64,000 nt of DNA from Candidatus Poribacteria bacterium (GTDB lineage Bacteria > Poribacteria > WGA-4E > WGA-3G): NCBI GenBank assembly GCA_965198235.1, contig OZ240248.1:4928001-4992000 (forward strand), in the 5' to 3' direction. The notes beneath the pieces are model-generated. The model worked only from the letters and a program-made list of their open reading frames with translations. It was not told where the DNA came from and made no database searches. Positions 24,985 through 28,695 of the stretch are shown piece after piece (position 1 is the first letter of the stretch; every line of letters starts with the position of its first letter). A program made the position numbers and the translations under genes.

Positions 24985-26358
24985 CTACGCTACTTTAGGT
25001 TTCTTTTTAACAATTTTTATTGCCTTCCACCTTCCAGTACTGTACCAAAACCACATCGCTATGCCTTGCACAACGTTTGAGAGGGCGATCCCTAACCAAA
25101 CGCCATTGAGTCCGATGAAGTGCGAAAGTAGAATCACGAGTCCCAAACCGATGACTACCTGTGCCGCAAGTGTAATCACCATTGGAGAGAAGGTGTCTCC
25201 GGCACCGTTGAGTGCTCTTCCCAAGATGAGCGAAAAGGCGATGAATCCGAACGTCGGGGACAGAAATTGTAGATAAACGATACCGATCTCAACAACACCC
25301 GTTTCCGGTGTAAAAATCCGGATGAATGTCTGTGGAAAAAGGAAGAAAACTGCGCCGATGACTGCCATGATCGCAGCACCTAAAAGGTTCGCCACTCGTG
25401 TTGAGCTCTCAGCGCGTTCTATCTGATTCGCACCTAAATTCTGGCCGACTAAGGGAACAACTGCGTTTGCGATGCCGAAACCGGGATTCATTACCATAAT
25501 CCGCAGCCGCATACAAATCGTATACGCCGCAACGACGGTCTTCCCGTAAGGTCCGATTACCCACAGAAAACCGAGTCTCGAAATATGCCGCCAAAACCCT
25601 TGCATAGAACTGTAAACGCCGAGCCTTAAAATGTCAAGCATTTCCACGAGGTCTACCTGATACCGAACGCTTCGAAATGAAACAGGTGCACGTCCACTCC
25701 AACAGAGATAAAGTAGGATAATTACGCTCGCGCCGCGCCCGATAAGCGTCGCATACGCGGAACCTGCTACCCCCAGTTTTGGAAACCCCCATAAACCAAA
25801 AATCAATAACGGATCAAGAACAATGTTAATCAGCGTTGAGAAAATCAGCACGATCATTGGGGTGATTGTGTCCCCGCCGGCGCGAAAGACAGAACCGAGG
25901 GTCATCGAAACGAACATTGTACTAATACCGGCGAGAATGATATGCATGTAAGTGGTGCCGAGCCTTAAGACCTCTGGATCTACCATTCTGACGGCGAGTA
26001 AACCTTGCTCAGCTAACGGATAGCCGACGAGGGTTACACCGATGGAGAAAAAAACAGCTAACAGCACTGACTGCATGGCGATGTGCTCAGCTTGTGCGAG
26101 GTTCCTTGCTCCGAGGTACTGTGCCACCATAATCCCGGCTCCTGTTGAAATGCCAAGCGAGAAAACCCCGATTAATCGGATTAAGTTTCCGCTCACTCCG
26201 ACAGCCGCTATCGCGCCAGCACCGAGCCTTCCAACGAAAATCATATCGACAATGTTGAATGCCTCTTGAAGCATGTAGCTGAGTATTATCGGTCCTGACA
26301 GCCGTAACAGGTGTCTTAGGGGACTCCCTCGGGTCAAATCTCCCCGTGTTTTTTTCAT
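24985..26358 (-). CDS. MATE family efflux transporter
   Basis: DMIFVGRLG, RAGGDT.TPM, NIVLDPLLIFG and GQNLGA; true start MKKTRG at 26358, because the ORF-track extension lies inside the IS end. Confidence 0.92.
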   Translation of the reverse strand: MKKTRGDLTRGSPLRHLLRLSGPIILSYMLQEAFNIVDMIFVGRLGAGAIAAVGVSGNLIRLIGVFSLGISTGAGIMVAQYLGARNLAQAEHIAMQSVLLAVFFSIGVTLVGYPLAEQGLLAVRMVDPEVLRLGTTYMHIILAGISTMFVSMTLGSVFRAGGDTITPMIVLIFSTLINIVLDPLLIFGLWGFPKLGVAGSAYATLIGRGASVIILLYLCWSGRAPVSFRSVRYQVDLVEMLDILRLGVYSSMQGFWRHISRLGFLWVIGPYGKTVVAAYTICMRLRIMVMNPGFGIANAVVPLVGQNLGANQIERAESSTRVANLLGAAIMAVIGAVFFLFPQTFIRIFTPETGVVEIGIVYLQFLSPTFGFIAFSLILGRALNGAGDTFSPMVITLAAQVVIGLGLVILLSHFIGLNGVWLGIALSNVVQGIAMWFWYSTGRWKAIKIVKKKPKVA

Positions 26359-26386
26359 CAAAATCTTCGGATTGGAAACCCCGAAT

Positions 26387-27412
26387 TCATTCGGGGGAGG
26401 AAAACCCACTCCTGTTGTTGAAATTCAGACGCGTCAGCACTCTAAAATCAGAGGGTTTCGCATTTTGGCAAAGACGGGGTTTCCCTGACAAAGAATACAA
26501 GGAAATCCCTTGCTTTCCAAAACCAGCAATACGGGTGAGACCATACTTACTGTGTCTCACAAGAGTGTTTTTTATCAAACGACTCCAAGTCGTCCCACCA
26601 TAACGGGGTCTTTCGCCACCTTGCTGTGAGTTCTGACGATGCAGTTGACGTCTGACAATCGGTATCGGTGAAATGCACAGTAAATGCCGGTTGTCTACAA
26701 TAGGTGCACCCCCAACAGTCTCATATGCCAGACACCAACTGTCAACACAATGCGCAGCAAATGTTTCAGAAAGCTTCTTGGAAGATTTCTTCAAACCGAG
26801 GCTCTCACGAATCGCTTTCGTCTGCCATCCCCGGAGTATCAACAACTCCCACCGCTTCTGAATCTCAGCGTAGAACCACTGCTTGCCCACTTCTAACGGA
26901 CTAAAGGACTGATTCCACTTTTTCGCATGTGCTATCGTGCGTGCTTTGATATCCTCAACACAAATATGGGTGATAGGAAACATCTTCGAGAACCAGTCAA
27001 GGATCCGAAGTTTCCACTCCCATCTCACACGTGTTCCCGCAGGAACTCGCTCTCTGTTGGCAAGTCTATTGGGGCGACTTTTGCGGTTCGGACACTTTCG
27101 AGAACGTCTACCTCTCCGCAACTCACGACGCTTCTCGAGCTTCTGACTGACTTTATTATGGGCATCTGCCTGCACATTCAGATACGTATGTGCTTGACTT
27201 TTGACAGTAAAACCTTCTTTCTTACTACCGGGATCTACCCCAACGACGATTTCTTGTTTGTAATCCTTAGACGGATCCACATTCAGCCGCACACAGAAGA
27301 CACCGTTTTTCCAAAAAGGTGTCGCTTTTCCTGATTTTATCCACTTCCCCGCGCGCTGTGGCGTTGTCGGCATCAGTGGATTTTGGTATTTATCGACGAC
27401 CATAACAAACAT
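26387..27412 (-). CDS. isrB: IsrB RNA-guided nickase (RRXRR/PLMP domain, split RuvC, no HNH), 341 aa
   Basis: PLMP; RuvC-I VGVDPG; Arg-rich bridge helix RRELRRGRRSR; RuvC-II CVEDI; RuvC-III HCVD; no HNH between RuvC-II and RuvC-III. Confidence 0.88.
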   Translation of the reverse strand: MFVMVVDKYQNPLMPTTPQRAGKWIKSGKATPFWKNGVFCVRLNVDPSKDYKQEIVVGVDPGSKKEGFTVKSQAHTYLNVQADAHNKVSQKLEKRRELRRGRRSRKCPNRKSRPNRLANRERVPAGTRVRWEWKLRILDWFSKMFPITHICVEDIKARTIAHAKKWNQSFSPLEVGKQWFYAEIQKRWELLILRGWQTKAIRESLGLKKSSKKLSETFAAHCVDSWCLAYETVGGAPIVDNRHLLCISPIPIVRRQLHRQNSQQGGERPRYGGTTWSRLIKNTLVRHSKYGLTRIAGFGKQGISLYSLSGKPRLCQNAKPSDFRVLTRLNFNNRSGFSSPE

Positions 27413-27620
27413 GGTTTGTAAGTTCCCTTTCGGGTTGTATATTGCCCCATCCAGATCACGGTATCCGAGAGGAATCAGACTTGGGGAGCATCCGAAACGT
27501 CGTGCTGGCTGCCACGCCAAGATACTGCGATATTTTACTGTAGAAAACTGTTTTGTCCTATGCAGGGAACGTTTGGCTACGCTATGCATAAGCCCCCGAC
27601 TTCAGTCGGGGGTAGTTGAC
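27413..27620 (-). ncRNA. omegaRNA scaffold (HEARO-like); guide expected from the flank at about 27621-27640
   Basis: About 200 nt of non-coding sequence between the element end and the isrB start, opening with a GC-rich hairpin; this is the canonical position for IscB/IsrB omegaRNA. Confidence 0.7.
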
Positions 27621-27729
27621 ATCTTTGATGTTTTGGCTGTTTGGTCGTGCCGTTTCAATCCCTTTCCGCCTTAATTTGCTTATCGAATCGAAGTTTGATA
27701 AACCCTACAATCCGATACGTCTTGACTTC

Positions 27730-27758
27730 ACTATAGCAGAATTCCGGTCGGCTGTCAA
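27730..27758 (-). promoter_or_regulatory. sigma70 promoter reading into guide/omegaRNA-isrB-MATE
   Basis: Minus strand TTGACA-17 nt-TATAGT with an extended TG. Confidence 0.6.
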
Positions 27759-27849
27759 GCGAAATCGCATCTGCTCTAACTGCTGATCACTGACACCTGA
27801 ATGTTAATTGCTGAAAACTGAATACTTTTCATTTTTAGTCGTTTTTTGT

Positions 27850-27879
27850 TTGACAGAATCCATGTAAACCTGTTATAAT
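27850..27879 (+). promoter_or_regulatory. sigma70 promoter of the LamG gene
   Basis: TTGACA-18 nt-TATAAT with TG, followed by AGGAGG RBS. Confidence 0.6.
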
Positions 27880-27906
27880 GTTTCATATTTTTTCAGGAGG
27901 CAAAAC

Positions 27907-28695
27907 ATGAAGAACGCAATATTGACTTGCAAAATCTCATTCTATGGGATTGTGTGTTTTTTGGTAGCACTGACCATGTTATTTACACCGTTCGTCTCGG
28001 CAGATCTTGGAGACGGTCTTATCCTACATCATTCTTACGATGAGGGGGAAGGCACGCTCGCTGCAGACGCGAGCGGTAACGGACACGATGGTGAAATTTC
28101 CAATCCGGATTGGGTGGACGGACAGATTGGGAAGGCTCTCCGGTTTGGCGGCGACGGCAGCGACGTGTTCGTCACTGTTGAAAGCACGGATGTCTTGAAC
28201 GTGAACGAATGTACATTTGCGGCATGGATTAACGCCGACCACTGGAACGGCACGCGTCAGATTGTTGGTAAATCCGTTCACGGTGGGTGTGCGGGTAGAA
28301 CGCAATACGGTCTATTCAGCGAAGGTGGGGTTTTCAAACTTCGTTTTGAAACCGAAGGTGGCAGAGCCGACATCGCAACCGATCTTCCACCGACAGGTGA
28401 GTGGATTCACGTTGCTTTTACTAACGATGGCGAAACCGCAACAATCTACATCAACACCGAAGCGGTCGAGGAAGGCGAAGTGCCGGGTGAGCTCAAAGCC
28501 AACGACGATCCGTGGCGGATCGGGCAGGATTGTGAACGCCTCAACTATGTCTTCGCGGGCGTGATAGACGAGGTTTCTCTCTGGAGCCGTGCTTTGAGTG
28601 CTGACGAGATTGGTATGGCATCAGAATTGGGTGTGCCTGTTGATCCTCGAGCGAAATTAGCCACCACTTGGAGCAACATCAAAATTGCTCATTAA
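27907..28695 (+). CDS. Secreted LamG/ConA-like protein (paralog A)
   Basis: Signal peptide, GKALRF, WIHVAFT and GVIDEVSLW; C-terminal VDPRAKLATTWSNIK. Confidence 0.87.
   Translation: MKNAILTCKISFYGIVCFLVALTMLFTPFVSADLGDGLILHHSYDEGEGTLAADASGNGHDGEISNPDWVDGQIGKALRFGGDGSDVFVTVESTDVLNVNECTFAAWINADHWNGTRQIVGKSVHGGCAGRTQYGLFSEGGVFKLRFETEGGRADIATDLPPTGEWIHVAFTNDGETATIYINTEAVEEGEVPGELKANDDPWRIGQDCERLNYVFAGVIDEVSLWSRALSADEIGMASELGVPVDPRAKLATTWSNIKIAH

Follow-up and report, generated by a model that had tools for sequence, protein, structure and literature searches.

The question raised by this stretch of Candidatus Poribacteria DNA (64,000 nt of contig OZ240248.1, referred to as the window) is whether the segment next to the start of a gene for a MATE efflux transporter is a working mobile element with an RNA-guided nuclease, and which host DNA would then serve as its guide and target. 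The segment at 26359-27620 is very probably an intact, non-autonomous element of the IS200/IS605 family ('ISC1'-type) which encodes the predicted RNA-guided nickase IsrB together with its omegaRNA. It is inserted 3' of TCAT on the plus strand, so that on the gene strand it immediately precedes ATGA, and it separates the 5' untranslated region (UTR) of the MATE gene from the start codon. The right end (RE) of the transposon (27620) is also the beginning of the omegaRNA scaffold, and the host DNA adjoining it on the outside represents the guide. The parts of the element are as follows, DtIsrB denoting the IsrB of Desulfovirgula thermocuniculi:

26359-27620, minus strand: whole non-autonomous IS200/IS605-type IsrB element, 1262 bp; its top strand is the plus strand of the window, with the left end (LE) on the left and the RE on the right
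26355-26358, minus-strand ATGA (plus-strand TCAT), then A at 26354: target-adjacent motif (TAM) and TnpA target, the ATG of which is the MATE start codon
26359-26378, plus-strand CAAAATCTTCGGATTGGAAA: terminal segment of the LE, comprising the 20 nt that lead from the boundary to the hairpin
26379-26396, plus-strand CCCCGAA-TTCA-TTCGGGG: LE hairpin with 7-bp stem and loop TTCA; the isrB stop codon TGA (26389-26387, minus strand) lies in the loop
26387-27412, minus strand: isrB coding sequence, 341 aa, with PLMP at residues 12-15, RuvC-I D60, arginine-rich bridge helix at ~86-105, RuvC-II E153, RuvC-III H221/D224 and a putative C-terminal domain at ~270-333
27413-27620, minus strand: omegaRNA scaffold, 5' end at 27620, beginning GUCAACUACCCCC; the Rfam match ends at 27418, and the last hairpin overlaps the isrB ribosome-binding site
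27593-27620: RE, composed of a hairpin at 27593-27612 (CCCCCGAC-TTCA-GTCGGGGG, 8-bp stem, loop TTCA) and an 8-nt tail (TAGTTGAC); its minus strand forms the first omegaRNA stem-loop
27621-27640, minus strand: guide, ACAGCCAAAACATCAAAGAT, host DNA adjoining the RE and part of the native MATE 5' UTR; the length of 20 nt is assumed from DtIsrB

The ends of the element are defined by related genomes that lack it. In a DNA search of 40 relatives with the window segment 25400-28700, the MATE gene of the relatives matches to exactly 26358 and the right flank resumes at ~27813-27843, with 103-645 nt between. Six same-genus loci were read (G006, G018, G024, G004, G012 and G020), and the element is absent from all six. 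Four of them (G006, G020, G004 and G018) carry on the plus strand ...TTTTTYTCAT followed by [A/G]TCTTTG[A/C]TG or a close variant, i.e., the left flank to 26358 joined to the right flank from 27621; the sequence past TCAT has diverged in G012 and G024. Because the flanks abut in these four relatives at the very junction proposed beforehand, guide and TAM can be read from natural empty sites. The first-pass annotation, which had staked its reading on this empty-site junction, is thus upheld in its choice of the minus-strand flank ending in ACAGCCAAAACATCAAAGAT as guide and of ATGA(A) as an NTGA-type TAM; ATGA is also an active TAM for DtIsrB (PMC9581776). Homology among 42 copies of the element (6 from the source genome and 36 from 24 same-genus genomes) spans 27620 to 26359, and since the terminal bases differ from the bases across the junction, the boundary is unambiguous and no target duplication is present. 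Subterminal LE and RE hairpins, insertion after TCAT and the lack of duplicated bases correspond to the IS200/IS605 layout. A boundary 3-4 nt further in with ATCAA/TTGAT as target, derived from the alignment of paralogues alone, is refuted by the empty sites. One contig from an RNA library of sponge samples (run X3) follows the MATE start region to 26358, beyond which it reads ATTTTTGG, in agreement with the G020 empty site; therefore, an insertion-free relative was present in the same samples.

As judged from these natural sites, the target consists of the guide match followed by ATGA, which places an NTGA TAM 3' of the target on the non-target strand. Among 85 evaluated copies (see below), 77 have ATGA and 8 have GTGA as TAM, by inference from genomic sites. 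A distant subfamily (L008, located at G000:C1:4527979-4528248, L070 and L131), sharing 63-68 % aa identity and possessing a longer 3' region, ends with ...GAAGAATT(T)G before ATAA/ATAT and may use a different TAM. The GC hairpins at both ends, pointed out at first reading for their identical loops, indeed share the loop TTCA and have nearly identical stems. Across copies (this copy, L002-L004, L025-L060), the LE and RE stems match within each copy yet differ between copies, i.e., the two hairpin ends change together within each copy. The isrB stop codon, contained in the LE hairpin loop, precedes the host ATG by 28 nt in the window copy; copies with the loop CTAAAG have TAA instead. Some copies (L038, L075, L076, L078 and L084) contain an extra small hairpin inside the LE hairpin loop.

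The isrB product (first residues MFVMVVDKYQNPLMP) matches the Pfam family RRXRR (PF14239, E 1.6e-31, residues 3-157), and no second Pfam family, hence no HNH domain, was found in the Pfam search of this protein. Its best solved relative is DtIsrB (PDB 8DMB; E 3.3e-32, residues 7-276), with DPG, VED and HCVD of the window protein pairing with DPG, TED and HAND in the alignment. The NCBIfam IscB model (guided_IscB) is matched only at positions 1-157 of 314, representing its N-terminal half (93.5 bits versus a cut-off of 175). Since an HNH domain is lacking and only 67 residues separate RuvC-II E153 from RuvC-III H221, the protein is by its sequence an IsrB and not an IscB. This agrees with the initial assignment, based on RuvC residues without HNH, and with the profile search for RRXRR proposed along with it.

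D60, E153, H221 and D224 are invariant in all 39 intact family members, as are L13, M14 and P15 of the PLMP motif; the bridge helix (86-105) contains RRELRRGRRSR. The AlphaFold model, computed from 39 family members, is of insufficient quality for residue-level claims. The top Foldseek hit of this model is 8DMB (E 6e-15, structurally aligned at ~26 % identity), ahead of IscB structures; the whole chain is aligned to 8DMB, the TM score being only 0.38-0.40, and the β-rich C-terminus (274-333), where a TAM-interacting domain would be expected, is predicted at a pLDDT (predicted local distance difference test) of 76-84. Reading isrB from an upstream ATG as a 400-aa protein would run through the conserved RNA and receives no support from the family alignment.

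Upstream of isrB, a non-coding RNA of about 200 nt had been proposed, and a conserved non-coding stretch of ~205 nt with covariation across the 42 copies is found at this position. Similarity starts at one and the same base (G/TTCA, corresponding to 27620) in 42/42 copies, while sequences further upstream are unrelated. The HEARO model of Rfam matches 27418-27620 on the minus strand (25.4 bits, E 0.015). RNAalifold applied to the family alignment predicts 35 pairs, 21 of them with compensatory changes. A structure of seven helices including a HEARO-type pseudoknot (40 pairs) was tested on the same family: 95.8 % of cells are paired as compared to 83.9 % in shuffles, and changes on both sides (compensatory) occur in 23 of the 40 pairs. 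The covariation score of 0.358 contrasts with 0.153 for shuffled alignments (reached by 0/500) and 0.046-0.061 with slid partners. Helix 1, formed by the RE hairpin, displays compensatory change in 7 of 8 pairs. Covariation across the 42 copies thus supports the predicted omegaRNA as real. Some copies have an extra small hairpin in the omegaRNA (L030:249-486, L040:294-515; columns 99-134 of alignment A1). Two further Rfam matches, Acido-Lenti-1 over the RE hairpin (25.1 bits versus 37) and CRISPR-DR56 (21 bits versus 35, E 0.85), are sub-threshold and regarded as chance or by-product.

The guide occurs a single time in the genome (allowing up to 2 mismatches in 20 nt). Because this one match is followed by the element rather than by a TAM, the sole genomic target of the guide would be the excised or empty site.

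The search for other copies in the source genome, advised in the first-pass annotation, yielded six full-length copies with 63-76 % aa identity to the window copy, among them one interrupted by a TGA, as well as fragments. Of the 42 copies, 39 are intact, and the ratio of non-synonymous to synonymous substitutions (dN/dS) between the window copy and its closest relatives is 0.10-0.16. A scan of a species-level genome collection recovered 261 relatives, the best 80 of which all stem from metagenome-assembled genomes (MAGs) of Candidatus Poribacteria. The family is thus, by these counts and ratios, large in Candidatus Poribacteria and under purifying selection; the description of the lineage as poorly sampled has to be dropped, since many MAGs carrying the IsrB family are available. 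The nearest copies (84-88 % aa identity) reside at different loci in other genomes, one of them in G014, whose MATE site is empty. At least one other insertion site is common to two genomes, with the same 20-nt flank in L047/L104 and L103. This distribution fits lineages that would be vertically inherited and relocate now and then.

The element is non-autonomous and does not encode a Y1 transposase TnpA. As stated from the beginning, no tnpA is present in the element or in the 64-kb window; a search of the genome, likewise suggested there, retrieved six Y1_Tnp matches, all outside the window and the nearest ~160 kb off. Nor was tnpA found in the flanking DNA of the 122 family loci. The six matches comprise three IS605-type tnpA-tnpB pairs (at G000:C1 near 119838, 4381488 and 4792784) and three solitary IS200/RAYT-like genes. 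Two of the IS605 elements (L010 and L011; G000:C1:4381488-4381841 and 4792784-4793137) are 99 % identical over 1848 bp and have TTAT on the LE side; their identity points to recent transposition. The IS605 elements resemble the IsrB element in their LE (target, CAAA..CTTC[CG]G, spacer, hairpin), in their RE (hairpin plus 8-10-nt tail) and in the hairpin loop TTTA that is common to them and most IsrB copies. They differ in carrying tnpA and tnpB, but no isrB, and in having the nuclease gene on the top strand. Upstream of one solitary Y1 transposase gene (L013, G000:C1 near 606918), repeats of ~61 nt are arranged at a spacing of 121 nt, resembling a REP-beside-RAYT arrangement.

The position of the element directly before a start codon recurs in the family. 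In a first set of 41 copies with recognisable LE, ATGA follows the LE in 38, its ATG opens an open reading frame (ORF) of at least 56 codons in 30, and in 20 a Shine-Dalgarno-like motif is located 4-17 nt before the junction as well. Pooling with the 80 Poribacteria loci yielded 122 loci, from which 13 duplicates, 13 loci without RE motif or enough flank and 11 loci without the LE-NTGA pattern were set aside (the latter including copies that end before ATAA/ATAT). This left 85 evaluated loci, 82 with plausible element length. Of these 82 elements, 59 directly precede the ATG or GTG of a host ORF that runs in the same direction for at least 56 codons (59/93 if the 11 pattern failures are scored as misses), and 37 also have a Shine-Dalgarno-like motif in the guide region. 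By comparison, among [A/G]TGA sites of the source genome where an insertion would leave a crude gene model uninterrupted, 23.2 % begin an ORF of this length and 9.5 % fall on the start of a modelled gene. The resulting binomial p of ~1e-20 ignores relatedness and relies on a crude gene model and on a null from the source genome only. In several members of the GTGA subgroup (L087, L111, L121, L122, L135, L056 and L096) the motif represents a host GTG start, as in case of isocitrate dehydrogenase-like and TrpD-like N-termini.

One may tentatively propose, as a possibility just short of probable, that the NTGA TAM serves the Poribacteria IsrB family as a start-codon address, with most copies located exactly between the Shine-Dalgarno region and the ATG/GTG(A) of a co-oriented gene. 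If true, the host promoter and 5' UTR would supply transcription and guide, and the host ribosome-binding region would become guide sequence. The isrB stop codon in the LE loop, 28 nt before the host ATG, may then permit re-initiation or translational coupling on the host gene. Such placement would be a sequence-encoded way to meet the need of IscB/IsrB elements for outside transcription and may explain the NTGA TAM of the clade. A simple account would be that a co-oriented, transcribed, non-coding position is needed and that in short 5' UTRs the start codon is the commonest NTGA. An orientation bias was already reported, and retention at transcribed sites proposed, by Meers et al. (bioRxiv 10.1101/2023.03.14.532601), the only relevant work found; neither exact docking at start codons nor Poribacteria IsrB was encountered in the literature as far as searched.

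At the window locus, the host context consists of two features:

24985-26358, minus strand: downstream host gene (MatE, E 4e-59), encoding a 457-aa MATE efflux transporter with its ATG at 26358
27730-27758, minus strand: TG-extended candidate promoter of the host, TTGACA-17-TATAGT, located ~100 nt upstream of the guide (consensus scan, 11/12 matches)

The candidate-promoter stretch is kept in all 6 empty-site relatives and is likely to be the native MATE promoter. From its position it could drive a ~100-nt leader followed by guide, omegaRNA, isrB and MATE. The available RNA data consist of contigs only, from four sponge metatranscriptome runs of one study, and may include DNA carry-over. In these runs, contig word depth is 0-13 for the isrB ORF and 290-2170 for the omegaRNA core (27391-27532). 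This suggests that omegaRNAs of the Poribacteria IsrB family are abundant in RNA libraries, with bearing on other copies and not on the window copy. Two error-free contigs (26329-26416 and 26329-26471) span the LE junction, with 30 letters on the MATE side as compared to a criterion of 31.

A working cycle of the element would combine these parts as follows. The host MATE promoter ~100 nt upstream would start a transcript reading through guide, scaffold, isrB and MATE, which would be trimmed to a guide-bearing omegaRNA and bound by IsrB. TnpA acting in trans, for which the three IS605 tnpA-tnpB elements of the same genome with their similarly built LE and RE are candidate sources, would excise the element, and the rejoined site would then consist of guide match and ATGA. 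The IsrB ribonucleoprotein is expected to recognise this rejoined donor site and to nick its non-target strand; recombination with a sister copy would thereby be favoured and the element restored (restorative homing). As long as the element is in place, the genome would offer no target.

Several observations weigh against this interpretation. Restorative homing has been demonstrated for TnpB and IscB, and only nicking for IsrB, according to PMC13565253. The best copy within the same genome has only 76 % aa identity and no near-identical sister exists, leaving recent copying unsupported. The HEARO match, sought because a covariance model had been recommended as a check, does extend over the full model, but its score of 25.4 bits is far short of the gathering score of 83. 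Support for the fold is weak, since the AlphaFold model reaches a mean pLDDT of only 61, with the RuvC core <50. The IS605 elements have TTAT instead of TCAT as target and other hairpin stem sequences; because of these differences, mobilisation by their tnpA is conjecture. Finally, every deep contig over 27391-27532 shows G replaced by A at 27499 and departs from the window sequence at either side, hence these contigs derive from other copies, and no RNA contig covers the proposed promoter and leader (27675-28000) in any of the four runs.

Two other explanations were considered. It is unlikely that isrB represents a fixed, immobile gene co-opted by the host, which would function in an operon with the downstream gene or in an RNA-guided host process rather than as a selfish homing nickase. 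Such co-option would agree with copies that are old and divergent (63-76 % aa identity within the genome) yet under purifying selection, with the direct and co-oriented placement of 59/82 copies on a host start codon, with at least one insertion site common to two genomes (L047/L104 and L103) and with the lack of tnpA beside any of the 122 loci. However, the four RuvC catalytic residues are kept in 39/39 members, while exapted relatives (TldR) are nuclease-dead (PMC13565253). Moreover, both end hairpins are preserved and vary in concert per copy, which only transposition needs; the window copy is absent from 6/6 relatives at this locus, with its closest relatives at other loci; and the guide is without genomic target while the element is in place.

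Less probable still is a decaying relic, whose ORF would be open by chance and whose protein or RNA would be defunct. A dN/dS of 0.10-0.16, invariant catalytic and PLMP motifs, RNA helices maintained by compensatory changes and two intact ends argue against decay, as do the related omegaRNA cores on very deep contigs in the four metatranscriptome runs. The points on the side of a relic are the HEARO score well under threshold, the lack of support for expression of the window copy from RNA contigs, a scaffold that falls ~55 nt short of the 262 nt in DtIsrB, and the fact that 3/42 copies are broken. The intact, non-autonomous element with a predicted homing nickase is retained as the preferred explanation.

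This element provides a compact (341 aa, ~205-nt scaffold) and, as judged from its sequence, apparently functional IsrB. Since guide, TAM and both ends are set by natural empty sites and not by prediction, it represents a clean candidate for nicking work. Beyond the single locus, sponge-symbiotic Poribacteria hold a large, diverse and selected IsrB family. Should the start-codon placement across the family hold up once genes are properly called and phylogeny is corrected for, it would lend precision to the published view that IscB-type elements survive at sites where the host's transcription can produce their guide RNA.

Among characterised systems, the closest counterpart is the DtIsrB-omegaRNA complex (PDB 8DMB; Hirano et al. 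2022, PMC9581776). Both proteins share the domain order of PLMP, split RuvC with arginine-rich bridge helix and, putatively in the window protein, C-terminal domain, lack HNH and are ~340-350 aa in length. According to the same study, the DtIsrB scaffold likewise starts with GUCAAC followed by a GC hairpin with the loop UGAA, and ATGA is a TAM on which DtIsrB cleaves; the NTGA-type TAM is thus common to both, that of the window element being read from genomic sites. In contrast, identity in the structural alignment is only ~26 %, the window IsrB originates from Poribacteria and is a nickase by prediction, and the DtIsrB scaffold measures 262 nt versus ~205 nt up to the ATG in the window element.

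IscB/HEARO elements (OgeuIscB, 7UTN/7XHT; GstIscB, Meers et al. 2023) have in common with the window element an omegaRNA upstream of the ORF and bounded by the RE, a guide outside the element, non-autonomy with the need for an outside promoter, and a homologous N-terminal half (guided_IscB 1-157). The layout reported for IscB by Meers et al. is the same: the omegaRNA is bounded by the RE, the guide lies outside and transcription must begin outside the insertion sequence (bioRxiv 10.1101/2023.03.14.532601). The difference lies in the HNH domain missing from the window protein, for which a nick is expected instead of a double-strand break. With the ISC1 group (Kapitonov, Makarova and Koonin 2015, as cited in PMC13565253), the window element shares the relation to IS200/IS605, a Cas9-like protein without HNH and the mostly absent transposase; no difference was found in the account given there, and the element is best filed in this group. 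It is a well-preserved new example of the known IsrB/ISC1 kind.

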